Positions 6,863 through 24,770 of a stretch of DNA of 25,081 nt are shown here, in pieces. The notes below the pieces were generated by a model that worked only from the letters and a program-made list of their open reading frames with translations, was not told the DNA's origin and did no database searches. Source of the stretch: Acaryochloris thomasi RCC1774 (GTDB taxonomy: Bacteria > Cyanobacteriota > Cyanobacteriia > Thermosynechococcales > Thermosynechococcaceae); NCBI RefSeq assembly GCF_003231495.1, contig NZ_PQWO01000038.1, forward strand, positions 1 to 25,081, written 5' to 3'. Each line of letters opens with the position of its first letter. Position 1 is the stretch's first letter. The position numbers were made by a program, and so were the translations under genes.

Positions 6863-8278
6863 ATGAAACGGCTTCAACCCCTTGACCGAGCAGCGATTTC
6901 ACTCATAACCATCTTCACGGTTTTGATAGTCTTGCTCTTGCTATCAGGAGATCGCACCGTTCCTCAGGTGCGGGACTTCAACTGGAACAATCAGCAAGTC
7001 GGCGCTGAGAACACGGCCTTTACGCTGGAATTCAACCGGACAATGGACTGGGAGCAAGTCGAAGAGAACCTGCAAATTACTCCCCCCTTGGAAGGGAAAG
7101 CGAGCTGGTCGGGTCGGCGTTTTGCCTATACCCTCACAGACCAAATGCCCTACGGGACTGAGTTTCAGGTACAGCTTGCTAATATCCTTGAAGCCAGTCG
7201 AGGCTCGCGCCATCAGCCAAAAGTGATGCAGCCCTTCACAGGGGAGTTTCAGAGTCGCGATCGCGCCTTCGTATACCTAGGTATAAACGGTGAAGAAGCG
7301 GGACGACTTATTTTGCGGAACCTTACCCAGGACGAGAAGACCGTTCTGACCCCCAAGAATCTATACGTCGTTGATTATCGTATATACCCATTGGGCGATC
7401 GCATCCTCTTCGCCGCCAACGATCTCAAAGTCCAAGAACAACAGGACTTCAACCCCCAGCTTTATACAGTGACCACTGGCCTCAAAATTGACGCCCCTGA
7501 TCTCCCTGCTACCCCCACCTCAGACCCCGGCAAAACCAAGCTGGTCCTTGATAACGAAAAATATCAAATCCTTAAGTTCGAGCTATCGCAAGATGGTGAG
7601 CGGATCGTTATCCAGCGATCATTAAGGCGAGGCGAAGGCTTAGGAGCCGTAGATCTTTGGCAGCTAACCAACGGTTCACTAAAGCAACTTGAAGGCGTGA
7701 CCGGTGGAGACTTTTTGATTGCCCCTGATAGCAACACCCTTGTAATTGCCCAAGGCGAAGGCATTGCCCTCCTCCCACTCGAAAAACAACAAACTGGCGA
7801 ACCTCTGGGCTTCTTACCTCAGTTTGGCGTCGTACTCAGCTTTGCCCCAGATGGAACGGCTGCCACCATGCTGAGATTTAACCCAGACTACAGCCGCTCT
7901 CTATTCTTGGTCACCAATCAAGGCATTCAAAAAGAGTTATTGAAAACAAAGGGATCGATTCTCAAAACTGCCTTTGGACCTCAAAAGCAGTTCCTTTACG
8001 GTCTACTCACCCAAGTTCAGCCCGGAGAAGAATATATCGAGAATCCTTATCTGGCTAAGATTGATTTAGAGTCAGGTCAGCTCACCCGGCTTCTCAACCT
8101 TTTGCCACAGGAGCGAACCAACATTAGTCTGGCCCCTGACGGTTCAGCCCTTCTCTTTGACCAAGTGAATACTGAAGGCGTTGAAGAGAGCAGTACGCTC
8201 AAGCTCCTTCCTTTAGACTCTGATAGCCAAGAACCGAATTTAGTCGCTGCTGGCTTAAATCCTCGCTGGCTCCCCTAA
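6863..8278 (+). CDS. Membrane-anchored Ig-like plus beta-propeller protein of unknown function; paralog B of 3554..4960.
   Basis: 471-aa ORF that aligns end to end with paralog A. Shared blocks: LQPLDR, SGDRTxPxVRDFxWxNQxVG, FTLxFNRxMxW, SWSGRRxAYTLT, SRDxAFVYLGI, GRLIxxNLT, DRILF, QLYTV, YQILKF, RSLFLV, SLAPDxSxLL, AAGLxPxWxP*. Confidence 0.6.
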   Translation: MKRLQPLDRAAISLITIFTVLIVLLLLSGDRTVPQVRDFNWNNQQVGAENTAFTLEFNRTMDWEQVEENLQITPPLEGKASWSGRRFAYTLTDQMPYGTEFQVQLANILEASRGSRHQPKVMQPFTGEFQSRDRAFVYLGINGEEAGRLILRNLTQDEKTVLTPKNLYVVDYRIYPLGDRILFAANDLKVQEQQDFNPQLYTVTTGLKIDAPDLPATPTSDPGKTKLVLDNEKYQILKFELSQDGERIVIQRSLRRGEGLGAVDLWQLTNGSLKQLEGVTGGDFLIAPDSNTLVIAQGEGIALLPLEKQQTGEPLGFLPQFGVVLSFAPDGTAATMLRFNPDYSRSLFLVTNQGIQKELLKTKGSILKTAFGPQKQFLYGLLTQVQPGEEYIENPYLAKIDLESGQLTRLLNLLPQERTNISLAPDGSALLFDQVNTEGVEESSTLKLLPLDSDSQEPNLVAAGLNPRWLP

Positions 8279-8343: not shown

Positions 8344-8706
8344 ATGCTGATCAGTAAAGCAGAGTCCGCTACGAACGCCCGTAAGGAATTCTTTAAAATC
8401 CTGGATGAGGTTGCCGAAGATAGTTCCGTTGTGATCGTGAAGCGTAAGGATGCGCCTAACGTTGCCATTCTGGCTGAGTCTGAGCTGAGTAGCCTAGTGG
8501 AGACAGTACATTTGTTGCGATCGTCCAAAAACGCTGAGCGATTATTCTCAGCTTTAGAAAAATCTCAGACTCGTGATCTAGATAGACCTGAGCAAATCGA
8601 TCATGAGCAGACACTAGCAGAACTGCGGCAATACTGTGAGCAAACGGAAGAAGCGGATACAGTCAACATCACCGGGAGCATTACCGCAGAGAGTTCCGAT
8701 CTTTGA
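8344..8706 (+). CDS. yefM: Phd/YefM-family antitoxin.
   Basis: The N-terminus SATNARKEFFKILDEVAEDSSVVIVKRKDAPNVAILAESELSSLVETVHLLRS matches the YefM/Phd fold consensus (ATEARxxFxxLLDEV...PVxIxRxG..AVLxSxxEYxSLxET). It sits directly upstream of and overlaps a YoeB gene. At 120 aa it is longer than typical members. Confidence 0.8.
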   Translation: MLISKAESATNARKEFFKILDEVAEDSSVVIVKRKDAPNVAILAESELSSLVETVHLLRSSKNAERLFSALEKSQTRDLDRPEQIDHEQTLAELRQYCEQTEEADTVNITGSITAESSDL

Positions 8707-8947
8707 AGCTGAATTCCGCGAAGATCTTAAGTTTCTCGCTCGAACCAATCCGACCGCCTACGATAAGGTTTGGAGATTTATCGACGAATGTCTAGAGCAT
8801 CCATTCACCGGCACGGGAAAGCCTGAACCATTGAAATACGTTGGGCCTGATATCTGGAGCCGTAGAGTAACGCTGGAGGATCGCCTAGTTTACCGGGTTG
8901 GCAACGCCAAGGTAGATTTTTTAACCTGTCGCTATCATTATAGCTGA
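8636..8947 (+). CDS. yoeB: Txe/YoeB-family mRNA interferase toxin.
   Basis: HPFTGTGKPEPLKYVGPDIWSRRVTLEDRLVYRV...LTCRYHYS matches the YoeB core, including the GKPEPL, WSRR and C-terminal RYHY catalytic motifs. The only canonical in-frame start is GTG 8636. This gives a 21-aa basic N-terminal extension and a 71-nt overlap with the antitoxin gene. The conserved core begins near 8693. Confidence 0.85.
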   Translation: MSKRKKRIQSTSPGALPQRVPIFEAEFREDLKFLARTNPTAYDKVWRFIDECLEHPFTGTGKPEPLKYVGPDIWSRRVTLEDRLVYRVGNAKVDFLTCRYHYS

Positions 8948-9805: not shown

Positions 9806-9893
9806 CAGGTAGTTACCAAACCTGAAACCAATGCAGTGCGATCCCGTGAGCGGGGGCATACTGAGTTGTATTGCCTGCGCCCCCTCAGTCCCT

Positions 9894-12800
9894 ATGCGCT
9901 TCTCTAGCCATCGCTTCTCGTTACTGCTGCTGTTGTCAATGTCAACATTTGGGCTTACCCCGCTGATGCAGCATTCTTGGGCTAAACAAAGTGTCAAAGT
10001 GCAAGGTGCTGATGTTCAGGCTGATTCATTGCGGCTCAGTCTTGGCCAGAAACCCCAATGGTCTGGTTCCCTGTTGATGGCACAGGCCGATATAGATGGT
10101 GAAAGACAGCGATCGCTTGAAGAAGCTAAGCAGTTAAATCAGCAAGTTGTTCAGCTATACAAACAGGGACGTTTCTCAGAAGCTGTTGCGTTCTCACAAC
10201 GCGTACTGAGTATTCGAGAAAAAGTACTTGGAGCAGGACACCCTGATATCGCCACCAGCCTCAATAACTTGGCTCTGTTGTATCATTCTCAGGGGCTTTA
10301 CTCAAAGGCTGAGCCGCTTTTCCAACGCGCCCTGAACATTGACGAGAAAGTACTTGGAGCAGGACACCCTGATATCGCCACCAGCCTCAACAACTTGGCA
10401 GAGTTGTATCGTTCTCAGGGGCTTCATTCAAAGGCTGAGCCGCTTCACCAGCGTGCGCTGAGTATTCGAGAGAAAGCACTCAGTGTCGAGCACCCTCACG
10501 TTGCCATCAGCCTCAATAACTTGGCAGGGTTGTATCATTCTCAGGGGCTTTACTCAAAGGCTGGGCCGCTTTTCCAACGCGCTCTGAGCATTCGCGAGAA
10601 AGTATTTGGAGCAGACCACCCTGATGTCGCAGTCAGCCTCAATAACTTGGCTCTGTTGTATCGTTCTCAAGGGCTTTACTCAAAGGCTGAGCCGCTTTTC
10701 CAACGCGCTCTGAGCACGAATGAGAAAGTGCTCGGAGCCGAACACCCCAATGTCGCCACCGGCCTCAACAACTTAGCAGAGTTGTATCGTTCTCAGGGGC
10801 TTTACTCAAAGGCTGAGCCACTTCACCAACATGCACTGAATATTCAAGAGAAAGCACTTGGAGCAGACCACCCTGATGTCGCAGGCAGTCTCAACAACTT
10901 GGCGCTGTTGTATCGTTCCCAGGGCCTCTATTCAAAGGCTGAGCCGCTTTTCCAACGCGCTCTGAGCACGTATGAGAAAATGCTCGGAGCCGAACATCCC
11001 AGTGTCGCTACCGGTCTCAACAATTTGGCCGAGTTGTATCGTTCTCAGGGGCTTTACTCAAAGGCTGAGCCGCTATGCCAACGCGCTCTGAATATTCGAG
11101 AAAAAACGCTCGGAGCTGACCACGCTGATGTTGCACAAAGCCTTAACAATTTGGCGCTGTTGTATAGTTCCCAGGGCCTGTATTCAAAGGCAGCTCCCCT
11201 TTACCAACGCGCACTGAGCATTCGAGAAAAAACGCTCGGATCACAACACCCTGATGTAGCAGATAGCCTCAACAACTTGGCAAGCCTATATGATTCTCAG
11301 GGCCTGTATTCCAAGGCAGTCCCCCTTTACCAACGCGCACTGAGCATTTACGAGAATGTTCTGGGAGCAGAGCACCCTCATGTCGCCACCAGCCTCAACA
11401 ACTTGGCACTGTTGCATCACGAGCAAGGAAATCTTACCCTTACCCATCAACTCTTTAGTCGTGCTGCGGATATCGAAGAACGGAATCTAGATCTGATGCT
11501 CTCCACCAGCTCTGAATCTAGGAAACAAGCCTACATTGCCACTCTGGCGGGAACAACAGATGCAATGCTCTCCTTCAGCATAGATGCTTCTGAGTCTCCT
11601 TCTTTTTCCCAACTGGCCTTCATAACTATCCTGCGCCGTAAAGGGCGAGTCTTATCTTCACTGATTAATAGCTTTCAATCTCTGCGCCAGAATCTATCCT
11701 CTACCGATCGCCCCCTTCTTGATCAACTCCAAGCTCTTCGTTCTCAACGAGCTACCCTCACCTTCCAGGGTCCAGATCAGCTCCCACCCAAACAACATCA
11801 GGCCACCCTTACTCAGCTTAAAATTCAAGAAGACCAGCTAGAGAACCAATTAGCCCGTAAAAGCGCAGAATTCCAAGCTGAGACCCAATCCGTCACCACT
11901 GCTGGTATCCAAGAACAAATCCCTCAAGGTGCAGCCCTAATCGAACTCGTCAAGTACAGCCCCTTCAATGCCAAAGCCATCAAGCAAGAATCTCAGTGGG
12001 GAACTCCCCACTACGCTGCCTACATCCTCAACGCAGACGGCACCCTCCAATGGACTGATCTCGGCAAAGCAGCCCCCATCGACCAGACCGTCACCCAATT
12101 CCGCCAAGCCCTCAAATCAAACACCTCCAACATCAAGCCCATCGCCCGCAAGCTCGACCAGCAGATCATGCAGCCCATCCGAGCAAAACTGGGCAACACC
12201 CGCCAGCTTCTTCTATCTCCCGATAGCCAACTCAACCTAATTCCCTTTGCCGCCCTCGTCGATGAGAACAATCAGTACCTGGTCGAGAACTACGACATCA
12301 CCTACCTCTCCTCCGGTCGAGATCTCCTCACACTCCAGACCACAAACTCTAAACAGAAGCTGCAGCCACCCGTCATCATTGCCAACCCCGACTATCAAAG
12401 TCCGGGAGAAAGCATCAAAATCGCATCCGCTCAAGCAGCAAAAAACCGCAGCTCCCAAGACCTAAACCTCAGTTTCGGCCCCCTACCCGGCACCAAAGCA
12501 GAAGCAGAGCAGCTTCAAAAACTACTCCCTCAATCGACACTGTTTACCCAGAACCAAGCCACAGAGAATGCCCTTAAGCAAGTCAAATCTCCAGAGATAC
12601 TCCACATCGCCACCCACGGCTTCTTTCTAGAAACCGATCTAGAGGCGGTCTCTACTCCCAATAACAATAGAGCCAGCATTAGTGTTGTTTCTCAAAAGCC
12701 CCCTAAAGCAAAGCAGGAGAAAAAGTACGAGAACCCTCTGCTGCGCTCCGGTCTAGCCCTAGCAGGAGCCAATCCACGCAAGAGTGGCACCGAAGACGGC

Positions 12801-13151
12801 ATCTTTACCGCCTTAGAAGCAACCAACCTCAATCTGCAGGGGACCAAGCTCGTGGTTCTTTCTGCCTGCGAGACAGGTCTGGGCAACGTGGAAAATGGTG
12901 AAGGTGTTTATGGTCTTAGACGCGCCTTCGTGATGGCGGGGTCTGAAAGTCAAGTGCTCAGTCTCTGGAAGGTGGATGACATCGGCACCAAAGATCTAAT
13001 GGTGAAGTACTATCAGCGTTTGCTCAATAAAGAGGGTCGGGGAGAAGCGCTACGGAAAACGCAGCTAGAGATGCTGAACAGTCCTAAATATCAGCATCCC
13101 TACTACTGGGCGGCCTTTATCCCGTCCGGTGACTGGAAGCCCATCCGCTAA
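9894..13151 (+). CDS. Exported TPR-repeat / CHAT-domain (caspase-like) protein.
   Basis: The likely start is ATG 9894, giving a signal-peptide-like N-terminus MRFSSHRFSLLLLLSMSTFGLTPLMQHSWA|KQ. About ten 42-aa KLC-type TPR units follow (LNNLAxLYxSQGLYSKAEPLxQRALxIxEKxLGxxHPDVAxS), then a coiled-coil-like linker. The C-terminal CHAT domain has a His/Cys dyad in ILHIATHGFF (His codon 12615-12617) and LVVLSACETGLG (Cys codon 12867-12869), and ends in HPYYWAAF. Confidence 0.9.
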   Translation: MRFSSHRFSLLLLLSMSTFGLTPLMQHSWAKQSVKVQGADVQADSLRLSLGQKPQWSGSLLMAQADIDGERQRSLEEAKQLNQQVVQLYKQGRFSEAVAFSQRVLSIREKVLGAGHPDIATSLNNLALLYHSQGLYSKAEPLFQRALNIDEKVLGAGHPDIATSLNNLAELYRSQGLHSKAEPLHQRALSIREKALSVEHPHVAISLNNLAGLYHSQGLYSKAGPLFQRALSIREKVFGADHPDVAVSLNNLALLYRSQGLYSKAEPLFQRALSTNEKVLGAEHPNVATGLNNLAELYRSQGLYSKAEPLHQHALNIQEKALGADHPDVAGSLNNLALLYRSQGLYSKAEPLFQRALSTYEKMLGAEHPSVATGLNNLAELYRSQGLYSKAEPLCQRALNIREKTLGADHADVAQSLNNLALLYSSQGLYSKAAPLYQRALSIREKTLGSQHPDVADSLNNLASLYDSQGLYSKAVPLYQRALSIYENVLGAEHPHVATSLNNLALLHHEQGNLTLTHQLFSRAADIEERNLDLMLSTSSESRKQAYIATLAGTTDAMLSFSIDASESPSFSQLAFITILRRKGRVLSSLINSFQSLRQNLSSTDRPLLDQLQALRSQRATLTFQGPDQLPPKQHQATLTQLKIQEDQLENQLARKSAEFQAETQSVTTAGIQEQIPQGAALIELVKYSPFNAKAIKQESQWGTPHYAAYILNADGTLQWTDLGKAAPIDQTVTQFRQALKSNTSNIKPIARKLDQQIMQPIRAKLGNTRQLLLSPDSQLNLIPFAALVDENNQYLVENYDITYLSSGRDLLTLQTTNSKQKLQPPVIIANPDYQSPGESIKIASAQAAKNRSSQDLNLSFGPLPGTKAEAEQLQKLLPQSTLFTQNQATENALKQVKSPEILHIATHGFFLETDLEAVSTPNNNRASISVVSQKPPKAKQEKKYENPLLRSGLALAGANPRKSGTEDGIFTALEATNLNLQGTKLVVLSACETGLGNVENGEGVYGLRRAFVMAGSESQVLSLWKVDDIGTKDLMVKYYQRLLNKEGRGEALRKTQLEMLNSPKYQHPYYWAAFIPSGDWKPIR
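10134..11490. repeat. 126-bp tandem repeat array (about 10 units plus degenerate flanking units) encoding the TPR region.
   Basis: Unit starts (CTCAAyAAyTTrGC) fall at 10260, 10386, 10512, 10638, 10764, 10890, 11016, 11142, 11268 and 11394. A 44-nt exact duplicate occurs at 10221-10264 and 10347-10390. Units 10638-10889 and 10890-11141 look like a two-unit (252-bp) duplication. Confidence 0.9.
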
Positions 13152-13160
13152 AGACCAACT

Positions 13161-14453
13161 CTAAATCACAGTCCCGTCAGGAATCACGGCATTCTTCAGC
13201 ACCACCGTCACACCGCTGCGAATCATGAAGCCATCGCTTTCGCGATCTGCTTCCTCGACACGATCTTTGTTGATGATTTGTACATTAGAACCAATGCAGG
13301 CATTTTTATCCACAATTGCCTTTTGAATCGTCGTATCACGACCAATACCGAGGGGCACCTGCTGATGGCTCGGATCAGCAGCGTGTTCTGGAGACTTCTT
13401 ATAGTAGTCAGACCCCATAATCATGGCTCGGTCAATCACACAGCCGGATTCAATGCGTGATCGGACCCCCAAGACCGAATTATTAATCTGACAGTTTTTG
13501 AGAATACAGCCTTCACTAATCATCGACTCTTTGACCTGACAGTCGAGCATTTTCGTCGGCGGCAGGTAGCGAGATCGGGTATAAATAGGCGCTTCACGAT
13601 CGTAGAAACTAAAGGGTGGTGCAGGCTGTCGGGTCAGCGCTAAATTCGCCTCATAAAACGATTCAATCGTTCCAATATCTTCCCAATAGCCGTTAAAAAG
13701 ATAGGCTTGGACGTTGTGGTCCGCCGCGGCCGATGGAATAATCTCTTTACCAAAATCTGTCGATTCCGGCGAATTCTTCAGCAGATCAATCAAGACATCT
13801 CGCTTGAAAACATAGATCCCCATAGAAGCGATGTAGGGCTTCTCTTTTGCCTCAGATGCAGAGAGTCCCAGCGTCGAGGTATCAACCTGCATTGCTCTGA
13901 GGGCATCCCCCGTGGGCTTCTCACTGAAGTCAACAACGCGACCCGACTGATCGATCTTCATAAGGCCAAAGCTGGAGGCCCTTGACTCACTGATAGGCAC
14001 AACCGATAGCGTGATATCTGCGTTGGTCTCCCGGTGACGGTGGACAAACTCTCGGTAATCCATCCGGTAAAGATGGTCACCAGACAGAATAATAAACTCA
14101 TCAATATCTTTTGATTCCGACAGCATCCATAGGTACTGCCGCACAGCATCTGCTGTGCCCTGAAACCAGTTGGGGTTTTCTGGCGTCTGCTGGGCTGCTA
14201 AGACCTCAGTAAAGCCATCAATAAAGCCAGAGAACGTATAGGTTTGGCTGATGTGCCGATTGAGAGAGGCTGAGTTGAACTGAGTCAACACGTATATCTT
14301 TGTAATCTCAGAGTTAATGGAATTACTAACAGGAATGTCGATCAGACGATACTTACCAGCCAACGGCACAGCAGGTTTGGCGCGTTGCTTGGTTAGCGGG
14401 TAAAGCCGAGTACCTGCTCCGCCCCCCAAGATAATCGCCATCACTTTTTTCAT
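13161..14453 (-). CDS. glgC: Glucose-1-phosphate adenylyltransferase (ADP-glucose pyrophosphorylase).
   Basis: [48 protein letters not shown]...[11 protein letters not shown]...FSEKP...[19 protein letters not shown] is unmistakably GlgC. The start is placed at ATG 14453. The track start at 14498 adds 15 non-conserved residues. Confidence 0.95.
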
Positions 14454-14590: not shown

Positions 14591-17500
14591 TTAATCCGAT
14601 CTCGAATCGTGTCTCTCGCTGTCTTGAGCCTGAGGCCCTATCTCTAGCATTTGGAACAGCTCATCGGCCTGCGCTTGATGCCATTGGCGAGATGGATCGC
14701 TCGAGAGACAGAGGCTCCACATGCGATGGATTTGGGCTTGCTCATAGGGCATCTCAAGCTGCTGCGCTATATCGAGTCCTTTTTTCCACAGACGCTTAGT
14801 TTGTTGAACCTTGCCCTGAATCCAATTGGTATATCCCAGCCAATACAGCTGTCGTGGTTGTCCGATTTGAAAAGATTGGGCATATTTTTGTAGAGCGCTC
14901 TGGGCTTGGCGGCAGAGAGCGAACTCACCCAGCAAATAGGATACGTCTAAGACGCTACCGTACCCTTCTAAGACATAGAGTGCGATCGGTGGGGACTGCT
15001 GAATAGAGTCTAGAGCTAGGGCAACAGCCTGCCGGGATCGCGCCAATTCTCCTTGACAATAGAAGATCAGCGATGATAGACCTTGCAGCCGGATCCGCTC
15101 ACTCACTAAATCAGGACGCTCTCTGAGCAGTTTTTGAGCTGATTGCATAAGGTTTAGGGTTTGAACTCCAACGGTCATTAAAGAGTCTGTGGGGAGTCCT
15201 ATGCCCAAAGCTGTCAGGGATTGGGGGCGACCGATATTTGACATCGCTAAGCGCTCTTCAATCTGTCCCAACAGCCCCCAGGCCTGGGCTTGAATATCGC
15301 CGCACTGATGACCCGTTTGATAGATTTGCTCCCAGAGGAGCAATGCGTCTCTAAAGCGGCCCTGGCAATGTTTGACCAACGCCAAAGCTGCTAGGGATTC
15401 AGCCAAATGGTGGTGATCACTAAGGGTACGATAGGCATCAATGGCAACCTGAAGACGTTCCTGTGCGGGAGACCACCGGCCCCCGCCGCTGCGATAGGCT
15501 CCCGTGACCAGGGCGACCCACCCAACACATGAAAGCGAGGCATCCAGCTCGTGCAGAGTGATCTCGGCGAGGGTACTGTATCGACGGGCGAGGCCATGAA
15601 GCTGGTTGAGTCCGGCAGCAAAGCACACATTCGCATAAATCCGAGCGAGCTCTGAGGAAGGAGCAGCGGTCTCTGCGATGTTAAGCCCTGTAATGCTGGC
15701 ATAGGTGGCGAGGGTCCGGCGATGCGTGTAGTAGTAGACTTCTCCCAAGGTGACGTAGGCTCTTGTCAGCTCTAGGCGTTTGAGCTGAAGCGCGGTGGAG
15801 AGAATTTCAGGAGAGCGAGACCTCAATCGATGCCAGGTTTGTTGTCCAATCTGTCTTAGCAAGTTTAGCCAAAGAGACCGCTGCGGCATGGCTTGTCCGA
15901 GTTGTGAGAGTGCGGCCTGCAAGTGATGCTCACTTTTTTGGAGCTGCCCTAGACTTAGGCAAGCTTCTCCTAACTGTCGATGCCATCGAGCCTGACGCGG
16001 CTGGTCAGTCTGGGTTCGCTCTAGGGCTTGGGTCAAAAACGCAATGGCTTCCTGATAGGCACCACTGGTGAGGGCCTGTTCACCGGCCTTGTCGAGATAC
16101 TCAAGGGCTTTGAGGTTGTCTTCCGCACGGCTCCAGTGGAAGGCAAGCAGTCCATAGGCGTCTTGACGGGATGAACTTTCGTACCAGGTTGCGATCGCAC
16201 GATGCAGCTCTCGTCGCTGAGAAAACAACATCAGCTGATAGGTGACTTCCTGCATCAGCACGTGGCGAAACATATAGGCCAGGGGTTCTGGCGATTCCAG
16301 CACCAGCAGTTTTTGTTGATATAGCCCCTGAACATTCTGGGGAAGCTGATGTTTATCAGCAGACAGCGGGTAGATTTCGTACAGCAACGGATAAAGGAAG
16401 CTACGGCCAATGACGCTAGCGGACTTCAGCAGAAGCTGCTGAGCAGGGGTCAAACGATCAATTCGGCTGGTGATCAGTCCCTGCAGCGTGGTGGGCAAAT
16501 TCAGCTCCTGTTCGTGAGGGCCATCGGCGGTCCAGTCACATTGATTATTTGCGATCGCAACCCCCCCCGCATCTCGCAGCGCGTAGGCCAACTCTTCACT
16601 CAAGAACGGATGTCCCTCAGCCTTCTGATAAATAAAGGTGGTGACCGACTCTGACAACGTCTGGATCCCAAGCTGCTGACAGACAAACTGTTGGGTTTCA
16701 GCACGGGACAGCCCCGCCAACCGCAAATACTTTGTTTGGTCCGCCGTCAGCAACTGTTGATAATCATCGGGACGTGAGCCTGTGCGGGGACGAGTGGCAA
16801 TCACAATCAGGACGGGCCACTTTTTCTGGCTGAGGGTACGTAATAATGCCCATGAGGCAGAATCAAGCCAGTGAGCATCCTCAAACGCAAATAACATGGG
16901 CGCTGATGTAACGCCTAGCAAATGCAGCAGCAGTGCTCGGATATTGTCCGCACGGACCGCCCCCTGCATCTGCTGCGTGAGCTCTGTTTCTGGGAAATCA
17001 ACATCGAACACAACATTGAGTAAGGGCGCAATGGCCTCAGGGCTCTTTGCCAACCGCGTGGGCACATCTGAATCTGATGCTAAAAGCGTTAATAGCTGCT
17101 GACGTCGCTGACGGGTATCGGTCTCTAGCCCCAGTCGTTGAGCGAGAATAGGTCGCCAAGCATAGTAGGGCGTAAATTGCTCAATGGCGTCTCCGGCCCC
17201 TGAGGTAAAAGACAGATTTTGGGTTTTAGCCCAGTGCAAAAAGTTGGCGAGCAGTTTAGACTTTCCGATCCCGGCCTCACCCTCAAGGATTGCGATGCTG
17301 GGTCGCCGCTTCTTTCGCCAGCGTCGCACCATTTCGATCAGATGTTGACGTTCACGCTGGCATCCGATTAGATCGGTCTCTGCAATCAATGGCGGTGGGG
17401 TAAGACCCAGGGGCTGATAAACAGACACTGGTCTATCGAAACCCTTGAAGAGCCGGGGTGACAGTGCGTTATAGGTGAGTTTTGATCGGCTAGCTCGGTA

Positions 17501-18679
17501 GGTCTCGCGATCACAGAGAACTTGCCGATCAGCCGCCTGCATCAGTCGAGCCGCTAAATTCACGACCGCCCCAATCATCGTGTATTCGCAGCGCTGAACG
17601 CTCCCAATCGTGCCGCAGAAAACATTGCCTGTACTCACCCCAATTTTGCAATGCCACCCCTGAGCCTGTAGCTTTTCCTGCATTACCAATGCAGCCTTGA
17701 TCCCACGTTCCGGGTCATCTTCATGGGCCAAAGGCGGCAGCCCAAACGCGGCAACAAGCGTACTCCCCTTCTCATCAACGCTAATTTTGTTAACGCTGCC
17801 CTCTAGGCGATACAAAATGCGCTGCAGCATCACCATCGTGGCCTGCATCTGCTCCAGCGACGCTGAGTCACTCAACTGCGGCAAATGAATAAACAAGAGC
17901 GTAATCTGCCGGTACTCAGCCAACCAATCCATCTGCCCCGCAGACAGACGGGCCAGAATTGCCCCTGGGATGTAAGAGCGCAGGCCTTCTGAGAGGACAC
18001 CGGGCACCGGTTCATCGGCCACAGGACACTGAGAAGAGGGGGCAATTGATCTGAGTAACCGATCCCCCTGGGGTAACGGCTTTCCCTGGCCCACTACCTG
18101 CACAAGCGCCCAAGCAGAAGCCGACAAAGCCACTCCCCCTAGCGGAACCTGGATAAAAAGCCGGCTGAGTTGACTGAGGGGTGGCCCCGTTACGATATAG
18201 TCCCATCGGTTCAAGACGCCCCCCACATAGGCGACCGTGATCTCCCCCACAGCAACACAGATGCGAAGCGTTAGATCAACGTTCTCAGGCGGTTCATAGG
18301 TCTGGGCATAGGCCTGAATGATGAGTCCACATTCTGCGGCTTGATGAGTAACCGTTTCCAAAGAACCGCTTTCTGTGACCGTCCATGCAGCCAGCAGCGA
18401 GTCACCCGCAAACTTAATCACGTCCCCTCCGTGGGCCAAGATCAAATCTGTAATATCGCCAAAGTAAGTATTGAGAATTTGGGTCAAATCCTCTAAACCC
18501 GTTGGTCCAGATTGAGCAAGCGCCTCAGTGAGAGAAGTAAATCCTGAGATGTCAGCAAACAAGAGAGCTGCCGAATATTGTTCAGATCGATGCGGACGGA
18601 GGGGACTTGCTTCCTCTGACAGATGGCGCACAACCAAACGGGGCACATAGCTAGCTAAGGTATCGATCAATTCGACCAC
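14591..18679 (-). CDS. Soluble-adenylyl-cyclase-like protein: tandem class III cyclase homology domains, STAND/AAA_16 P-loop NTPase, and a TPR-like helical repeat region.
   Basis: CHD-1 spans aa ~36-200 (nt 18080-18574) with FADISGFT and GGDVIKFAGDSLLAAW. CHD-2 spans aa ~256-425 (nt 17405-17914) with ITLLFIHL, VDEKGSTLVAAFGLP, IGVSTGNVFCGTIGS and EYTMIGAVVNLAARLM. Walker A GEAGIGKS is at nt 17258-17281 and Walker B-like MLFAFEDAHWLD follows. The C-terminal ~750 aa is helical and repeat-rich (ALEYLDKAGEQALTSGAYQEAIAFLTQAL etc.) with no recognisable HTH. Confidence 0.9.
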   Translation of the reverse strand: MVELIDTLASYVPRLVVRHLSEEASPLRPHRSEQYSAALLFADISGFTSLTEALAQSGPTGLEDLTQILNTYFGDITDLILAHGGDVIKFAGDSLLAAWTVTESGSLETVTHQAAECGLIIQAYAQTYEPPENVDLTLRICVAVGEITVAYVGGVLNRWDYIVTGPPLSQLSRLFIQVPLGGVALSASAWALVQVVGQGKPLPQGDRLLRSIAPSSQCPVADEPVPGVLSEGLRSYIPGAILARLSAGQMDWLAEYRQITLLFIHLPQLSDSASLEQMQATMVMLQRILYRLEGSVNKISVDEKGSTLVAAFGLPPLAHEDDPERGIKAALVMQEKLQAQGWHCKIGVSTGNVFCGTIGSVQRCEYTMIGAVVNLAARLMQAADRQVLCDRETYRASRSKLTYNALSPRLFKGFDRPVSVYQPLGLTPPPLIAETDLIGCQRERQHLIEMVRRWRKKRRPSIAILEGEAGIGKSKLLANFLHWAKTQNLSFTSGAGDAIEQFTPYYAWRPILAQRLGLETDTRQRRQQLLTLLASDSDVPTRLAKSPEAIAPLLNVVFDVDFPETELTQQMQGAVRADNIRALLLHLLGVTSAPMLFAFEDAHWLDSASWALLRTLSQKKWPVLIVIATRPRTGSRPDDYQQLLTADQTKYLRLAGLSRAETQQFVCQQLGIQTLSESVTTFIYQKAEGHPFLSEELAYALRDAGGVAIANNQCDWTADGPHEQELNLPTTLQGLITSRIDRLTPAQQLLLKSASVIGRSFLYPLLYEIYPLSADKHQLPQNVQGLYQQKLLVLESPEPLAYMFRHVLMQEVTYQLMLFSQRRELHRAIATWYESSSRQDAYGLLAFHWSRAEDNLKALEYLDKAGEQALTSGAYQEAIAFLTQALERTQTDQPRQARWHRQLGEACLSLGQLQKSEHHLQAALSQLGQAMPQRSLWLNLLRQIGQQTWHRLRSRSPEILSTALQLKRLELTRAYVTLGEVYYYTHRRTLATYASITGLNIAETAAPSSELARIYANVCFAAGLNQLHGLARRYSTLAEITLHELDASLSCVGWVALVTGAYRSGGGRWSPAQERLQVAIDAYRTLSDHHHLAESLAALALVKHCQGRFRDALLLWEQIYQTGHQCGDIQAQAWGLLGQIEERLAMSNIGRPQSLTALGIGLPTDSLMTVGVQTLNLMQSAQKLLRERPDLVSERIRLQGLSSLIFYCQGELARSRQAVALALDSIQQSPPIALYVLEGYGSVLDVSYLLGEFALCRQAQSALQKYAQSFQIGQPRQLYWLGYTNWIQGKVQQTKRLWKKGLDIAQQLEMPYEQAQIHRMWSLCLSSDPSRQWHQAQADELFQMLEIGPQAQDSERHDSRSD

Positions 18680-18803: not shown

Positions 18804-19385
18804 TTAGGGATTGACGGGCTGAACAGACCATTGACCCGATGATTCTAAGTGATATAGGCGTCGCTGCTGCGGCATTCCGCGTAGTTCTAAATGATCGACC
18901 CGATTCGGCTCTAGCAATACGAGGCAAAATGATAAGAGGGGGCGGTCTGCGTCAAGGGACTCTATTGCAGCAGGATTCTCCGTCTGCGGCATTCCGGGTG
19001 TCGGCCATGCAAACTGTTCTTGCGCCGACTCTGAGAGTGCTTTCCAGGTCAGCTGACGCTGGCGCTGTAGGGATGCATCAGCACAGTCTCGATCAATGAG
19101 CCGCAGCTGACCCGAAATCCGAAACTGCTCTCGCGTTTTTGGGAAGTACCAGCAGGCTTCAGTCCAGCTACAGCTCTGGATTTGCCCAACTTTGGCGCTG
19201 CGCTGGTCGGTCACAAATTTAAGCTGATTAGAGGCCTCAAGAAAACCACGAAAAACGACGGTGCGGTTAGCAGGCTTCTGATCTCGCGTGAGCGTGGCCA
19301 ACTGCAGATAGCGGGCATTGGGGAGAGACCGATTGCGATGAAGGGCGCGGGCCAATGTGGGTCGCCAAGGCGTTGGAGGAGTCAT
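18804..19385 (-). CDS. PPOX-class FMN-dependent flavoprotein (pyridoxamine 5'-phosphate oxidase-related, cyanobacterial alr4036-type).
   Basis: YLQLATLTRDQKPANRTVVFRGF...LKFVTDQRSAKVGQI...EACWYFPKTREQFRISG...EQFAWPTPG... matches the PNPOx-like split-barrel pattern. The start is probably ATG 19385 (MTPPTPWRPTLARAL). The track start at 19412 is a TTG. Confidence 0.75.
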   Translation of the reverse strand: MTPPTPWRPTLARALHRNRSLPNARYLQLATLTRDQKPANRTVVFRGFLEASNQLKFVTDQRSAKVGQIQSCSWTEACWYFPKTREQFRISGQLRLIDRDCADASLQRQRQLTWKALSESAQEQFAWPTPGMPQTENPAAIESLDADRPLLSFCLVLLEPNRVDHLELRGMPQQRRLYHLESSGQWSVQPVNP

Positions 19386-19453
19386 GACAGGGTTGGTTAG
19401 GCGCAGCTTCAAAACACGATTATCGAGCCTTTAGCCCCCGAAGTCACGGGCCT

Positions 19454-20695
19454 TCAAAAAACAAGGCTCAATGCTTTCTTACCGGTTTGCGTTAAGAGCC
19501 GCACCGGACGCAAAAAGTAGTAAAGAAAGTAAAAAGGGCGCGGCAGAGGTAAAAATTCATGATCTAGGGTATTGGGTAATACCTTGATCACTTTTGATCT
19601 CATGTGACGCCTGATCTCTTTCAAGCTGTCCCATCGGTCCTGGGGATGCTCAACCGACCGCAGATGGAACCAAAATTTTTCGCGCGTAAAGCGCCGGCCC
19701 AGGCGATTGTTAGAATCGAACAATTTCTGAACGCACTGGTGGGTGAGCTGCTGACCAATGACATCCTGGGCAAGCTTTTGCTCAATTAAGGGGGGAAGGG
19801 GAGTACCTAAAAACGTATGGGCTAGTGATAGCCCCAACAGCAGTCGCCGCTCGCATCGTAGTACTTGCGATCGCATCAGTATTTCTGTCCAGTTGGCCTG
19901 GGGAGAGTTTTGGACCCACTCAGCAACATCACAGATCCATTTGAGACCGCGCCAGCACTCTTTCGAGCCGTGCAGACAAAGGTAGATTAAGAGATCGGCT
20001 TGGCTAAAGCTAGGGACTGACTGACCCGCAATCGTGATCATTTCGCGGCGCTCCCACAGCAGATCGAAGGTCAAGGCCGACGAAAGAAAATCCTCTACGG
20101 TCAGATTTCGATGCAGATCGATGGGGACGATGCCTTTTCTGAGACCGTATTCCCGCCAAGAATTCATAAATGACGCTTCCTGAGCAGGATCTAAAAAATG
20201 CCACTGCCGCCCAGAACAGTAGCCTGCCTCTGTGGTGAGAATTGCGATCGCATCTAACACCCTGTGCGGCTCCACCCAAATATCTAGGTCACAGAAATTT
20301 CTCAGCGCCAGATTCCCATAGGCAGAAACGGCCAGAACCGGACCCTTAAAAGGCAAGGCGCGAATACCGTGCGTTTCTAGAAGCTGCAGAATACTGAGCA
20401 GTTCCCGCGTGAACAGAGTATTTTTCAGAGCAATTTGCTGTACAAACTGTCGCAGCTGCTTCAGCATTTGTTGCGGGACAACATCAGGGGCAACAGCGCT
20501 CAAGCTTTGATAGAGCAACGGGAGAACACCGTGATTACCTGCCGTTTCAATCAGATAATCCCAGTCCAGATCATTTTGGCCTGCCAACACCTCAATCTCC
20601 TGAATCGAGGCATCCTGAATTTGGGTGGTTGCACAGCGAAGCAGCAGGCGAAGCTCAGACCCTAAAGATACGTTGAGACTTTCCACAGACAACAC
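19454..20695 (-). CDS. Uncharacterised nucleotidyltransferase-family protein (NTP_transf_5/PF14907-like).
   Basis: The 413-aa ORF contains LDWDYLIETAGNHGVLPLLYQSL...IRALPFKGPVLAVSAYGNLALRNFCDLDIWVEP...IDLH. This resembles the family signature GxxxR.FxDLDxLV as I recall it. The start is GTG. The call is from memory of the family only. Confidence 0.65.
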   Translation of the reverse strand: MLSVESLNVSLGSELRLLLRCATTQIQDASIQEIEVLAGQNDLDWDYLIETAGNHGVLPLLYQSLSAVAPDVVPQQMLKQLRQFVQQIALKNTLFTRELLSILQLLETHGIRALPFKGPVLAVSAYGNLALRNFCDLDIWVEPHRVLDAIAILTTEAGYCSGRQWHFLDPAQEASFMNSWREYGLRKGIVPIDLHRNLTVEDFLSSALTFDLLWERREMITIAGQSVPSFSQADLLIYLCLHGSKECWRGLKWICDVAEWVQNSPQANWTEILMRSQVLRCERRLLLGLSLAHTFLGTPLPPLIEQKLAQDVIGQQLTHQCVQKLFDSNNRLGRRFTREKFWFHLRSVEHPQDRWDSLKEIRRHMRSKVIKVLPNTLDHEFLPLPRPFYFLYYFLRPVRLLTQTGKKALSLVF

Positions 20696-20836
20696 TTCTT
20701 TCTCTAAACTGCGCCCTCAGATCCTAAACACAAGACCTATTGACCAGTGTACCCAAATCAGGCCAAACGCTCTCAGCATCTGCCCTCAGCCGTTTGGTAA
20801 CGGCAAAACAGCCAATGTTGTTTTGCTAGCGTGACA

Positions 20837-21814
20837 TTAATCAAACCAGAGAGATAAAAGCTCCTGCCCCAATAGCTCATCGAGTCCAGCCAGCTCCTTT
20901 TTAAAGAAATCATCTAAAAACTGCTTGGTTGACGCTCTCATCTTAGGAGGTCTGCTGTCGGTGAGCGGATTAATAAGCCGATGGGCCTTATTAACTATTT
21001 TTGGAATATTGAATTTTGACTTAGATTGACCGTGGTGAGTGGGCAGAAAATCGCCATAGTTAATCGTGTTTAGCTGGCGGAACCATTTGTTTCTTAAGAT
21101 CTGAATCTTTAAATATTTTGGAATTCGAGCAGAGTTTTCATGAGATTTAAAAGCAGCTGTTGGTAGTGCTTCAAAATCAACGCCGACATGCTCACAGACT
21201 GACCGTACAGTCTGTGCTTTATTCGCAATAAATTCTTCAAACAGAACGATCTTAATGCGCGCTCTCGGAATATACCTTAGAAAATCTTCCAGTTGCTCAT
21301 AGTACATGCTCCGTCCTAAAACACTGTAGGGATCATACTGAATCATCTGTTCAAAATCATAGACAGCCCTACCCGTTCTAAGCATGTGCCAATACTGAGA
21401 ATAGGCTCTGCTGGTCGGGTGGCGAAGCATGACCACAACTTTGATGTCTTTGGGCTGTAGGGCAATTCTCTGCGCCGCTCGTTTAGAACTGAGATAAACG
21501 GTAGAGTCTTCGCCAATCATCTGACCGGCTTGAGCTGCGGCAAAATGACGGGCATACCAGCGCCAAAATTTTTCCGGATCTTCATGGATATCTTGCGAGA
21601 TCCACTGTCCTTGCTTAAATAAGAAGAAGTCAGGGTGTTCCAATAAGTTATCAATATCAAAAAAATGGATCTCTTTCTCAGGTATATAGATATCTGGATG
21701 TTGATCAAGAACATGGTGCAACGTTGTCGTTCCAGACTTCATTGCGCCACAGATAATAAAGTCTGGAATTTTAATTTTTTCTGGAGCAATCCACACGTTA
21801 GTCAGCTGAGTCAT
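20837..21814 (-). CDS. PAPS-dependent sulfotransferase (Sulfotransfer_1/3-like).
   Basis: The 5'-PSB loop is FIICGAMKSGTTTLHHVL and the 3'-PB motif is VVVMLRHPTSRAYSQYWH. The gene is markedly AT-rich relative to its neighbours: spot counts of two 60-nt lines gave about 35-40% GC against about 52-53% in lines from the cyclase and lyase genes. Confidence 0.85.
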   Translation of the reverse strand: MTQLTNVWIAPEKIKIPDFIICGAMKSGTTTLHHVLDQHPDIYIPEKEIHFFDIDNLLEHPDFFLFKQGQWISQDIHEDPEKFWRWYARHFAAAQAGQMIGEDSTVYLSSKRAAQRIALQPKDIKVVVMLRHPTSRAYSQYWHMLRTGRAVYDFEQMIQYDPYSVLGRSMYYEQLEDFLRYIPRARIKIVLFEEFIANKAQTVRSVCEHVGVDFEALPTAAFKSHENSARIPKYLKIQILRNKWFRQLNTINYGDFLPTHHGQSKSKFNIPKIVNKAHRLINPLTDSRPPKMRASTKQFLDDFFKKELAGLDELLGQELLSLWFD

Positions 21815-21946
21815 TATATTTTAGGTTCGGTATATTTCAGTTCAGGAGGGCACCTTATAGGGTCTGACCTGTCGTTCATTGACGCTCGCGAAGAGGGGAT
21901 TGAGGTCTGTCTATCACTTTAAATACAGGATAAGAGTACAGGAGAT

Positions 21947-21980
21947 AGCTCACGTTTAGATCTGATACGTGAGCTTTTTT
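21947..21980 (+). terminator. Strong intrinsic-terminator-like hairpin with no upstream plus-strand ORF.
   Basis: AGCTCACGT (21947-21955), 11-nt loop TTAGATCTGAT, ACGTGAGCT (21967-21975), then a T-run to 21980. The stem is a perfect 9 bp. The minus-strand reading has no trailing U-run. Confidence 0.6.
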
Positions 21981-22020
21981 GACTGAAGATAACGCCTATT
22001 CTTTCTAGGTGTGGCCACCT

Positions 22021-22046
22021 GTTCCAGGTCTGGCTGGAACGTTTTT
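22021..22046 (+). terminator. Second terminator-like hairpin, about 40 nt downstream of the first.
   Basis: GTTCCAG (22021-22027), loop GTCTGG, CTGGAAC (22034-22040), followed by GTTTTT. Confidence 0.45.
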
Positions 22047-22257
22047 CCGAACCTTGAGTCCAGTACTTATGGGTAGGCTGCCCTCTCGTCTCGTCATGAT
22101 CTAAAGACTTCTTCGTTATCCTGAAGGAAGTCAATGGGCTTGGCAAGCAGAGCATTGGCGCTACCAATGGCGTCTCCTCCGGCTAATACACGCCGTTCAA
22201 GCTCTGTATTCGTCCAAATCCGTTCCCGTTTTCCCTTGCTCCTTGCATCACTCACTC

Positions 22258-23577
22258 ATGAAACTCCAATCCATTGCTTTACCGCTTGTTTTTCTGATGC
22301 TGTGTCCCCCGGCATGGGGAGAGATTCTCATGTCAGTCGATGCTGAAGGGGCGAGCATTCGCAGCCGTCGAGATGGCAAAGACAACTATGTCAAGAACAG
22401 CGTTGATGGTGACCTGATTGACAACAGCTTAGTGTTAGAAGGACAGGTGCATGGGCATGCTCGCCCGCCCGCCATCAGCACAACGGAATATCGCCAAGGC
22501 TCTCACTCTCTCATGTTTCAAGTGTTGCCCAACAATCGCGGTAAGGAGCGGTCTGAGCTGTGGTTTGAGGGGTCGCGCACGGGCAGGAAATCACGCCGAA
22601 AACCGTTTGACCCCAGCTTTACCGGTGGCTCGCGCACATCCGTTATTCCCTGGGGCGAAGAGCGGTATACGGCTTTCAGCTTCAAGCTGCCGACTGACTA
22701 TCAAGTCGGTAGTGGTCTTTTCATTACCCAATTTTGGCAGGTTTCTCCCAAGGGTCCACCTGCGTCGCTATTGCTCTATCGCAAGGACGGGCGTCTAAAG
22801 GGCACGCTTCAGATTCTCAACGATCGCGGTATGCAAATTGTGGATCGATTCACGGTTAAAAGAGGGGTCTGGCATGACGTAATTCTCAATTACAAATTTA
22901 GTCTCAATCCCAGCGAGGGGTTTATGCAGGCGTGGGTCAGACCCGTCACCAACAAGCAGTACCGCAGACTTAAGCGATATCAGGGAGCCATTGGCTTTAC
23001 TAGCAACTCCAAGCGGCGCAGCAAAGGATTGTTTCATAAGTTCGGCATTTATCGTCCCGGTAAAGATAGTCGGAAGCAAACCGTTTTCTTTGATGAAGTT
23101 CGCAATGCAAGGCCTAGCCCCAATATTTTCTATGAGCTTGATCCATCCTTTATCAACCCACGTCAGTTTTATGTGCTCAAAAATCTAGGGGCCAACGCTG
23201 CGCTCTCGGTTCCGAATAGCAGTCAAACGATTACCAGCGGCAGCAGCGCGATTTTATCTGCTGCGTCGCGTCGGGGCTGGCAGTTTATTTATGTAGAGGA
23301 TGGATACTATCAGCTTCTTAGCAGCGGTAAGGCTCTAGAAGCGAAGCAAGGTAGCAGCCAGACCTGGAATGATGGCGATCCGGTTCAGCTAACGGATCGA
23401 ACGGACCAGCCGAGTCAGCACTGGTACTTGATTGATCAGGGGAAGGGGAACTATCAAATTATCAATCGAGCCAGTCGCCTGTCACTTGCGGGCAGTCCAG
23501 GCACGTCGGATGGCCAATTGGTCCAGTTGGCACGCCCAACCACTCAAGCTCCCCAACTTTGGCGATTTGGGTCTTAA
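22258..23577 (+). CDS. Secreted two-domain protein: polysaccharide-lyase-like (PF14099-type, concanavalin-like fold) N-domain plus a C-terminal ricin-B (beta-trefoil) lectin domain.
   Basis: ATG 22258 gives the signal peptide MKLQSIALPLVFLMLCPPAWG. N-domain blocks: RSELWF, RYTAFSFKLP, FITQFWQ, GVWHDVILNYKFS, GFMQAWV, HKFGIYRPG, VFFDEVR. These fit the heparinase-I-like Polysacc_lyase pattern as I recall it. The C-domain has three QxW-type motifs (RGWQF, QHWYL, QLWRF). The N-domain assignment is less certain than the ricin domain. Confidence 0.65.
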   Translation: MKLQSIALPLVFLMLCPPAWGEILMSVDAEGASIRSRRDGKDNYVKNSVDGDLIDNSLVLEGQVHGHARPPAISTTEYRQGSHSLMFQVLPNNRGKERSELWFEGSRTGRKSRRKPFDPSFTGGSRTSVIPWGEERYTAFSFKLPTDYQVGSGLFITQFWQVSPKGPPASLLLYRKDGRLKGTLQILNDRGMQIVDRFTVKRGVWHDVILNYKFSLNPSEGFMQAWVRPVTNKQYRRLKRYQGAIGFTSNSKRRSKGLFHKFGIYRPGKDSRKQTVFFDEVRNARPSPNIFYELDPSFINPRQFYVLKNLGANAALSVPNSSQTITSGSSAILSAASRRGWQFIYVEDGYYQLLSSGKALEAKQGSSQTWNDGDPVQLTDRTDQPSQHWYLIDQGKGNYQIINRASRLSLAGSPGTSDGQLVQLARPTTQAPQLWRFGS

Positions 23578-23618
23578 CTCGATCCCGTCTCTGATAGCTT
23601 TACAGCTTTAGGTGCCAG

Positions 23619-24770
23619 CTACGTTGGTTCAGATGAGAGGGGCTGCAATATTTGTGCCAGCTGCTGATTAACAACAGATAGATTGAAATCTTGACTCGCT
23701 TTTTGCTGAGCGGCTTTAGCGATGACCTGACTTTGTTCGGGGTGCTGGTGGCAAAAGATAATTTGGTCTGCGAGCTGTTGCGGAGCATTCGATTCACAAA
23801 GCCATCCGGTCTGACCAGAGTTAATGAGTTCGGTGGCTCCCCCTGCGTTGGCGGCGATGACGGGGCGTCCACAGAGCATGGCTTCAACAATGACGCGCCC
23901 AAAGGGTTCGGGAGCCGTTGAGGTATGAGTAATCAGATGGCAAAGACTCATCATTTGAGGCACGTCATTCCGAAATCCAAGGAAACGAACCCGGTTCTCT
24001 AGCCCTAAGTCTTTAACTTTTGCCTGTAGGTGTTGAACATAATCGGCTTCACCGAATAGCGCATCACCGACGAACAACGCTGAGATCTCTTCAGGGCAAA
24101 GCGCCAAGGCATCTAGCAGTATGTGCTGACCTTTCCAGTGCGATAGGCGGCTAAAGTGACCGACCCAAAAGGTATCGCGGTTGAGGTCAAGTTCTTTGGC
24201 CAACGCCTCTTGTTCATGGAGCGGAATCAGATAGTTATCAGGCTGAAAGCCATTGTATAGAATACGGGTTAGCTCTGGCCGTCCTCCGGCTTCAATGAAG
24301 GCGGCTTGCGTGGCGTGGGAGTTGGCGATCACGAGGGTGGCGCGGTTAGCTAAGGTGACGGCGATCTGTCGATTGGTATGACTAAAGTGGCTGGCCGATA
24401 AAATGTCGTGGAGATGGTAGACCAGGGGGCGGCGGGTGATAAGGCTTGCGATCGCACCCACAACCAGCGCCTTGGGCGTATTGGCGTATATCACATCAAA
24501 CTGACGCGCCAGTTTCACGACTTGGCCGAGCAGGGGCAGCAGAGCTGGAATACGGCTGAGTGCCAGCCACAAACTGCTGTCTTTGCGAATCTCAATCGAC
24601 TGCTGTGCCAGCACCTGCACCGGAATTTGCTGCTGCTCTAGCAGGTCTTTAAAGGGACCATCGACCAGCAGCGCCACCAAACACCGATCTCGATAGGGAC
24701 GGGCAATATCCATCAGGCATAGCTCTGCCCCACCGGGTTGACCACTTTGATCAATAAACAGAATTTTCAT
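23619..24770 (-). CDS. GT4-family (GT-B fold) glycosyltransferase.
   Basis: MKILFIDQSGQPGGAE... is at the N-terminus. The C-terminal half has the EX7E region TSTAPEPFGRVIVEAMLCGRPVIAANAGGATELI..GQTGWL. It lies 10 nt downstream of the truncated GT gene on the same strand. Confidence 0.9.
   Translation of the reverse strand: MKILFIDQSGQPGGAELCLMDIARPYRDRCLVALLVDGPFKDLLEQQQIPVQVLAQQSIEIRKDSSLWLALSRIPALLPLLGQVVKLARQFDVIYANTPKALVVGAIASLITRRPLVYHLHDILSASHFSHTNRQIAVTLANRATLVIANSHATQAAFIEAGGRPELTRILYNGFQPDNYLIPLHEQEALAKELDLNRDTFWVGHFSRLSHWKGQHILLDALALCPEEISALFVGDALFGEADYVQHLQAKVKDLGLENRVRFLGFRNDVPQMMSLCHLITHTSTAPEPFGRVIVEAMLCGRPVIAANAGGATELINSGQTGWLCESNAPQQLADQIIFCHQHPEQSQVIAKAAQQKASQDFNLSVVNQQLAQILQPLSSEPT

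Follow-up and report, generated by a model that had tools for sequence, protein, structure and literature searches.

The 25,081-nucleotide window analyzed here, the stretch of Acaryochloris thomasi RCC1774 contig NZ_PQWO01000038.1 from positions 1 to 25,081, carries a gene for what we consider, at a probability of about 80%, to be a cyanobacterial ortholog of animal soluble adenylyl cyclase (sAC; ADCY10 family, class IIIb), a single-site pseudo-heterodimeric adenylyl cyclase that would be gated by a STAND-TPR module. The gene (14591..18679, minus strand) is a complete, uninterrupted open reading frame (ORF) with a GTG start. It encodes a protein of 1362 amino acids (aa), whose N terminus agrees with the homolog consensus “MxxxxxTLASYVP”. 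Two cyclase domains (C1 and C2), a STAND NTPase and TPR-like repeats follow one another in the single chain, as a first-pass annotation of the DNA had proposed, and Pfam recovers this arrangement with two PF00211 matches, one to AAA_16 and one to TPR_12.

C1 covers aa 8-215 (18035..18658, minus strand, as for all segments of this gene) and C2 covers aa 229-427 (17399..17995). When the domains were scanned separately, both exceeded the PF00211 cut-off of 21.9 bits, with 41.2 bits for aa 36-161 and 39.2 bits for aa 256-400. The second domain, whose status as a cyclase domain the first-pass annotation had put up for checking, is thus recognized standing alone. The motifs quoted in that annotation were each located at the expected position: FADISGFT (aa 41-48) and KFAGD (aa 89-93) in C1, and LLFIHLP (aa 261-267), VNKISVDEKG (aa 296-305), EYTMIG (aa 365-370) and VNLAAR (aa 373-378) in C2. 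The cyclase domains are followed by a MalT/AAA_16-type STAND NTPase module (aa 441-840, 16160..17359) made up of a nucleotide-binding domain, a helical arm and a winged-helix region, with an AAA_16 match of 57.8 bits over aa 441-626. Its Walker A motif or P-loop, GEAGIGKS (aa 467-474, 17258..17281), and its Walker B motif, LFAFED (aa 596-601, 16877..16894), are both intact, and an AHWLDSAS motif stands directly after the latter (FEDAHWLD, aa 599-606). Across the family, the invariant positions of the STAND module are G467, G470, G472, K473, D606, R630, G689, P691, and H826, and the three glycines and the lysine of the P-loop are invariant in 55 sequences.

The remainder of the protein is a TPR-like alpha-helical repeat region of about 26 helices (aa 842-1345, 14645..16156), with matches to TPR_12 and related Pfam families near aa 870-925. 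The repeats had been estimated at about 750 aa, which is too long: the superhelix occupies about 500 aa, and the stretch from the P-loop to about aa 840 is not TPR but the rest of the STAND module, with its nucleotide-binding, helical and winged-helix parts. A helix-turn-helix (HTH) domain, said to be lacking, was indeed not found, as no HTH or GerE match was returned by Pfam for the cyclase protein even at E ≤ 1. Hydropathy windows of 19 aa revealed no plausible membrane helix in the protein; the highest-scoring windows (1.6 to 1.7) fell at aa 138 and 178, in core beta-strands of the confidently modeled cyclase domain, and at aa 580, in the strand before Walker B.

Comparison of aa 1-439 with all solved structures by phmmer returned human sAC as the top relative (4clf; E = 2.2e-44, 155 bits), with two collinear stretches pairing aa 8-193 with human residues 16-197 and aa 229-427 with residues 261-466. 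CyaB came next, at 67 bits and E = 1e-17, and the homodimeric cyanobacterial class IIIb cyclases reached 48 to 61 bits (E = 1e-12 to 1e-16 in the Protein Data Bank [PDB]), so that the protein is closer to ADCY10 than to generic CyaB-type cyclases, as had been suggested. Domain-wise BLAST paired each domain with its animal counterpart: C1 scored 96 bits against macaque C1 and only 13 bits against macaque C2, while C2 scored 93 bits against macaque C2 and 24 bits against macaque C1. The two domains of the window protein gave no match to each other in the same comparison. Given that the domains pair C1 with C1 and C2 with C2 and do not match within the chain, the divergence of C1 from C2 is older than the split between the bacterial family and animal sAC.

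The resemblance extends well beyond the catalytic domains. These comparisons used full-length ADCY10 sequences retrieved from the database (P0219, P0249, P0303, and others). With the whole ORF, BLASTP gave a single collinear alignment of aa 5-771 to residues 15-853 of platypus ADCY10 (E = 1e-72, 25% identity), which takes in both cyclase domains, the P-loop, Walker B and the winged-helix region, and weaker collinear segments against platypus and macaque ADCY10 reach as far as aa 1059. The P-loop aligns with that of mammalian sAC (GLPGYGKS in macaque, GSAGYGKS in platypus) and Walker B with the corresponding mammalian region (IFIIHEAQFVD in macaque, IFIIDEAQFID in platypus). After removal of the catalytic domains, the C-terminal profiles of the bacterial family and of mammalian sAC still matched in hhalign with 99.8% probability (E = 3.8e-30) over 844 columns, from 2 to 885 of 932 on the bacterial side and from 12 to 1081 of 1140 on the mammalian side. 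Among solved structures, aa 431-1362 had no sequence relative. The domain-by-domain resemblance to ADCY10, first noted motif by motif, is therefore borne out by the collinear BLASTP alignment and the C-terminal profile match and, judged from these alignments, is a matter of homology and not of coinciding motifs.

Structure prediction gave a consistent picture. The AlphaFold2 model of aa 1-440 (pLDDT 89.6, pTM 0.88) is an intramolecular C1-C2 dimer, and the first 24 PDB matches found for it by Foldseek were all human sAC (E of about 1e-33 to 1e-36), with TM scores of 0.80 to 0.84 in most of the 24 entries and 0.78 at the lowest, over the full 440 aa. The soluble domain of transmembrane adenylyl cyclase 9 came after human sAC, at a TM score of about 0.72. 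The intramolecular pseudo-heterodimer proposed earlier is thus also what the model predicts, since its C1-C2 dimer superposes on human sAC. In the model of aa 431-1362 (pLDDT 89.8), a Rossmann-like NTPase is followed by a helical and winged-helix part and then by an all-helical repeat region of about 26 helices; the best Foldseek matches to this model were the STAND-TPR protein 6mfv, MalT, Apaf-1, and CED-4.

Set beside full-length mammalian sAC (sACfl), for which a predicted STAND domain has been described with reference to Leipe et al. 2004 and heme-binding and autoinhibitory segments have been proposed (PMC12802110), the window protein has the same domain order of C1, C2, P-loop STAND NTPase and helical repeats, the same split of catalytic residues between the domains, the class IIIb threonine and an equivalent of K95. 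It differs in that overall identity is only about 25% and in that its chain has about 250 aa fewer, with both the C1-C2 linker and the C terminus reduced in length. At single positions, the first metal position of C2 is Asn in mammals and His in the window protein, human position 338 is Phe in mammals and Asp here, and the equivalent of R176 is displaced by one residue.

The family to which the gene belongs is large and has already been described, and the gene is an ordinary member of it. At E ≤ 1e-10, 2891 homologs were found among the candidates scored. The best 120 of these are 39 to 96% identical to the window protein and nearly all full length (1290 to 1465 aa, with one of 1089 aa); all of them have cyclase and AAA_16 domains and most also have TPR. 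Homologs came from cyanobacteria (Acaryochloris, Altericista, and Thermosynechococcaceae), many orders of Chloroflexota, and the Gemmataceae (Planctomycetota). The closest relative, labeled “Cyanobacteria bacterium”, is 96% identical, followed at greater distance by proteins of Thermosynechococcaceae (64%) and Acaryochloris (49%), and the nearest relatives outside the cyanobacteria are Chloroflexota proteins of the same architecture, with 39 to 44% identity over 96 to 100% of the length. A contig scan with the single protein as the query yielded five distant loci at 27 to 29% identity. Against platypus sAC, all 121 bacterial sequences gave alignments, at 160 to 299 bits, and the 254 bits of the window protein do not mark it as unusually close. 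With a family of thousands, and with bacterial sAC-like cyclases in the literature since 2004, the novelty that the first-pass annotation implied does not hold. If cyanobacterial sAC-like cyclases were at that time thought to have a single catalytic domain, as the 2004 abstract reportedly stated, a cyanobacterial member with the full architecture would extend the known range modestly.

Among the closest characterized relatives, besides sAC, are the cyclases of Chloroflexus aurantiacus (Dev Genes Evol 214:503), a bacterial family reported as sAC-like, in which the functional domain structure is conserved and a P-loop NTPase is present; according to papers that cite Kobayashi, Buck and Levin 2004 (PMC6660944, PMC11006738, PMC2613629), these Chloroflexus cyclases are activated by bicarbonate. 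The cyanobacterial enzymes for which a response to inorganic carbon has been reported, Spirulina CyaC, Anabaena CyaB1, and Synechocystis Slr1991/Cya1, share the catalytic fold and the class IIIb signature with the window protein but have a single cyclase domain, form symmetric homodimers with two active sites and lack a STAND-TPR portion. In mycobacterial Rv0386-type proteins, too, a MalT-type ATPase and TPR come after a class III cyclase domain, and the part of the window protein made up of C2 and STAND (aa 246-903) is similar to this general layout. However, Rv0386 has one cyclase domain, of class IIIc, and must therefore homodimerize, and it ends in a LuxR HTH, whereas the window protein has two complementary, class IIIb-like domains and no HTH; the earlier separation from this type, made on the same two features, stands, and the protein does not belong to it. 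The TOMM kinase/cyclase fusion model (TIGR03903) was likewise set aside, as it matched at 155.5 bits against a cut-off of 705.75, over aa 246-903 (C2 and STAND) only, and there is no kinase domain.

To assign catalytic residues, we aligned 119 full-length bacterial relatives and five mammalian sACs, taking residue roles from Table 1 of PMC12867704 and from PMC12250328. In C1, the metal-binding aspartates of human sAC, D47 and D99, correspond to D43 and D93 and are Asp in all 119 relatives. Human K144, which has been named a pyrophosphate (PPi) “receptor” (PMC12867704), corresponds to R139 (Arg in 93 and Lys in 18 of the 119), and the bicarbonate-binding K95 corresponds to K89. C2 supplies the counterparts of the base-recognizing K334 and T405, K298 (Lys in 101/119) and T367 (Thr in 105/119), and of the transition-state residues N412 and R416, N374 (Asn in 117/119) and R378 (Arg in all 119). 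None of these relatives has Asp at the first metal position of C2 (Asn in 77, His in 25), which is H265 in the window protein; by motif register, C1 lacks the Asn as well as the Thr/Asp. Neither domain therefore carries a full catalytic set, and the complementary degeneration of the two domains that had been read from the single sequence proves to be a pattern of the whole family. The assignment of the substrate-binding lysine had to be changed: the Lys of VDEKGS, given that role earlier, is K304, the counterpart of K340 in the human FDKG loop, and the base-recognizing Lys is K298 of VNKISV.

C2 lacks only the first of the metal-binding aspartates. At the second metal position (aa 302, window 17774-17776), Asp is found in all 119 bacterial relatives and Phe (F338) in mammalian sAC, so the degenerate pocket of the bacterial proteins retains one acidic metal ligand that has been lost from the animal enzyme.

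By these assignments, C1 and C2 of one chain would pack together into a pseudo-heterodimer with a single active site, to which C1 would contribute D43, D93, and R139 and C2 would contribute K298 and T367 for the base and N374 and R378 for the transition state. The symmetry-related pocket, with H265 at the C2 metal position and neither Asn nor Thr from C1, is predicted to be catalytically dead. It keeps K89, which makes it a candidate regulatory site.

Several points weigh against the reading of this protein as an adenylyl cyclase regulated as sAC is; they concern the response to bicarbonate, the product and the role of the NTPase. In human sAC, bicarbonate is bound between K95 and R176, the latter acting as a switch (PMC12250328/PMC12867704). 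The Lys of VIKFAGD had been equated with K95, and K89 does align there and is Lys in 115 of the 119 relatives. The position of human R176, in contrast, is S172 in the window protein, with R173 next to it, one residue out of register (aa 172-173 lie at window 18161-18166), and Arg or Lys occupies the R176 position or the following residue in only 26/119 bacterial relatives. The commonest residue at the R176 position across the whole family is Gly. In a 2026 study (PMC12867704), alkaline pH but not HCO3− elicited a response from sea urchin sAC, which has no R176, and from salmon sAC, which has no K95. It is thus possible, though at well short of even odds, that the protein is an sAC-family enzyme blind to bicarbonate and CO2, set instead by pH, by the ATP level or by a ligand of the STAND-TPR module, as the sea urchin and salmon enzymes would suggest.

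Against such blindness stand the retention of K89 and the placement of R173. The latter lies at Gly+8 (human R176 is at Gly+7), a spacing that is canonical for the catalytic Arg and by which R378 of C2 points into the active site; R173 could therefore still reach the pocket. The basic residues at the switch site are also concentrated in cyanobacterial clades: of the first 30 relatives in the list, almost every one with Arg or Lys there is from the cyanobacterial clades (SR, NR, RR, RL, and KQ), the human register reads “RLAQ” in the Acaryochloris clade, and the three non-cyanobacterial proteins in that list (P0029 to P0031) have SM, ST, and SA. Finally, a response to inorganic carbon is reported for the Chloroflexus sAC-like cyclase and for every prokaryotic class IIIb cyclase that had been tested.

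The product is most likely cyclic AMP (cAMP), because K298 and T367 form the Lys/Thr pair of class IIIb that recognizes adenine, as K334 and T405 do in human sAC. Guanylyl cyclases canonically use a Glu/Cys pair for base recognition, and the pair in the window protein is a different one. Cyclic GMP or another cyclic nucleotide as the product is accordingly quite unlikely; it is suggested by the Dictyostelium sAC homolog, which reportedly encodes a guanylyl cyclase (Roelofs et al. 2001) and so makes the product uncertain by homology alone, and by the side guanylyl cyclase activity reported for Rv2488c-type cyclase-ATPase proteins.

The C-terminal 930 aa comprise a STAND NTPase of the MalT type, in which both Walker motifs are intact, and after it a TPR-like superhelix, the whole being homologous to the C terminus of sACfl. 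By analogy with other STAND proteins, this portion probably keeps the cyclase in a nucleotide-dependent off or on state until the repeats have engaged a ligand or partner. In a 2025 study (PMC12802110), nucleotides had no isoform-specific effect on purified mammalian sACfl, and no regulator particular to the full-length isoform came to light; the role proposed here for the NTPase is therefore one by analogy only.

A STAND module between an enzymatic head and a repeat region had also suggested an NLR- or Avs-like antiviral sensor, in which the TPR would recognize a phage protein and the cyclase would act as an effector that makes a Pycsar-like cyclic-nucleotide alarm. That the layout formally fits, that the PADLOC model for the Pycsar cyclase PycC matches the cyclase domains with up to 70 bits, that the window contains ORFs for a TPR-CHAT protein and a Phd/YefM antitoxin at a distance of no more than about 6 kb and that a cyclic nucleoside monophosphate (cNMP)-binding protein follows the cyclase in Chloroflexota speak for this, but we regard it as very improbable, since no Avs or other STAND defense model was matched in PADLOC (the matches other than to cyclase, TPR and PDC-M16A, being marginal at E of about 0.002 to 0.004), the PycC matches are restricted to the generic cyclase fold, the immediate neighbors are housekeeping genes (glgC, a pyridoxamine-oxidase-like gene, and polysaccharide genes) that are syntenic across relatives of 65 to 84% identity, the 119 aligned full-length relatives (36 to 96% identity) have the same architecture and conserved motifs through the repeats, unlike fast-diversifying defense STAND sensors, and the closest characterized relatives, sAC and the Chloroflexus sAC-like cyclase, are signaling enzymes. 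Assignment to Pycsar was rejected: no cNMP-binding domain was found in the Pfam-scanned ORFs of the window, and the similarity to PycC is that of the cyclase fold.

In the TPR-CHAT protein (1106 aa; 9831-13151, plus strand), an N-terminal hydrophobic stretch and about 8 to 10 repeats of the NPHP3/TPR_10 type precede a CHAT (caspase-like) protease domain at the C terminus. Such an arrangement is characteristic of conflict or NLR-like systems in bacteria. The Phd/YefM-type antitoxin ORF (8344-8706, plus strand; PF02604, E = 2e-12) is overlapped by an ORF of 103 aa (8636-8947, plus strand), a candidate for its toxin partner.

Downstream of the sAC-like cyclase gene and on the same strand lies glgC, for ADP-glucose pyrophosphorylase (13161..14453, minus strand; PF00483 and LbH_GLGC), whose likely ATG at 14453 gives the 137-bp gap that had been described. 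The TPR-CHAT gene converges on glgC from the other side, and about 10 bp separate their stop codons. The upstream neighbor of the cyclase encodes a Pyridox_oxase_2 family protein (18804..19412, minus strand). We compared neighborhoods at eight loci with contigs. The order Pyridox_oxase_2-cyclase-glgC is present, whole or in part, in relatives at 65 to 84% identity (L006, L007, and L010): Pyridox_oxase_2 is syntenic in L007 and L010, and the adjacency of cyclase and glgC is kept in L006 and L010, the L007 contig stopping at the cyclase. The gene order is absent at the cyanobacterial homologs of 46 to 49% identity (L008, L009, and L013), which include Altericista and Acaryochloris. No promoter or terminator consensus was found in the 137-bp gap or in the gap upstream of the cyclase, which is uninformative as to cotranscription. 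The adjacency to glgC is thus most likely a clade-level local synteny, and a functional link of the cyclase to glycogen synthesis is possible but unsupported.

Farther upstream of the cyclase is a polysaccharide-related set (window 19454-24770), syntenic in L006 and L007, which comprises NTP_transf_5 (19454-20695), a sulfotransferase (20837-21814), a polysaccharide lyase that also carries a ricin-B lectin domain (22243-23577, plus strand) and a GT4 glycosyltransferase (23619-24770). At the other end of the window, two ORFs of about 470 aa (3554-4960, minus strand, and 6863-8278, plus strand) gave weak N-terminal matches to Big_5 (bacterial Ig-like) only; they may encode paralogous secreted proteins that flank a short-chain dehydrogenase and a methyltransferase.

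The Chloroflexota loci examined differ from the window in having a downstream cluster with a cNMP-binding protein, which has no counterpart here. In Herpetosiphonaceae (L011:6001-15157) and Anaerolineae (L012:6001-15366), the sAC-like cyclase heads a conserved same-strand cluster, in which it is followed by genes for a protein of about 310 aa with no Pfam match, a 552-aa protein that has a cNMP-binding domain at its C terminus, a protein of about 66 aa matching PF14407 (“Frankia_peptide”), which is a predicted ribosomal peptide, and a protein of about 650 to 680 aa with no Pfam match. The cluster may be a cyclase-receptor-peptide module, and the presence of a cNMP-binding protein after the cyclase in two Chloroflexota orders fits a cyclic-nucleotide output for the family.

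A more far-reaching proposal can be framed for the clade of the window protein, namely, that its sAC ortholog is a sensor of inorganic carbon and energy, with bicarbonate bound in the degenerate pocket at K89/R173, ATP status read by the STAND module and glycogen synthesis tuned by cAMP via the adjacent, perhaps cotranscribed glgC. We consider this unlikely. Were it true, it would point to an ancient link between sAC and glycogen, control of glycogen metabolism by sAC having been reported for mammalian cells in a preprint (bioRxiv 10.1101/2022.09.01.505928), and the soluble bacterial protein would become a workable model for what the C terminus of sACfl does.

For the family, the concentration of the basic switch residue in cyanobacteria means that simple mutations could discriminate between an ancestral and a lineage-specific origin of bicarbonate sensing. 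The main value of the protein lies in its possible use as a bacterial model for the C terminus of sACfl. The mammalian full-length protein, with its large STAND/TPR portion, is hard to express; a bacterial ortholog with a C terminus that is homologous over 844 columns and has a confident AlphaFold2 model might ease both its biochemistry and its structural analysis.

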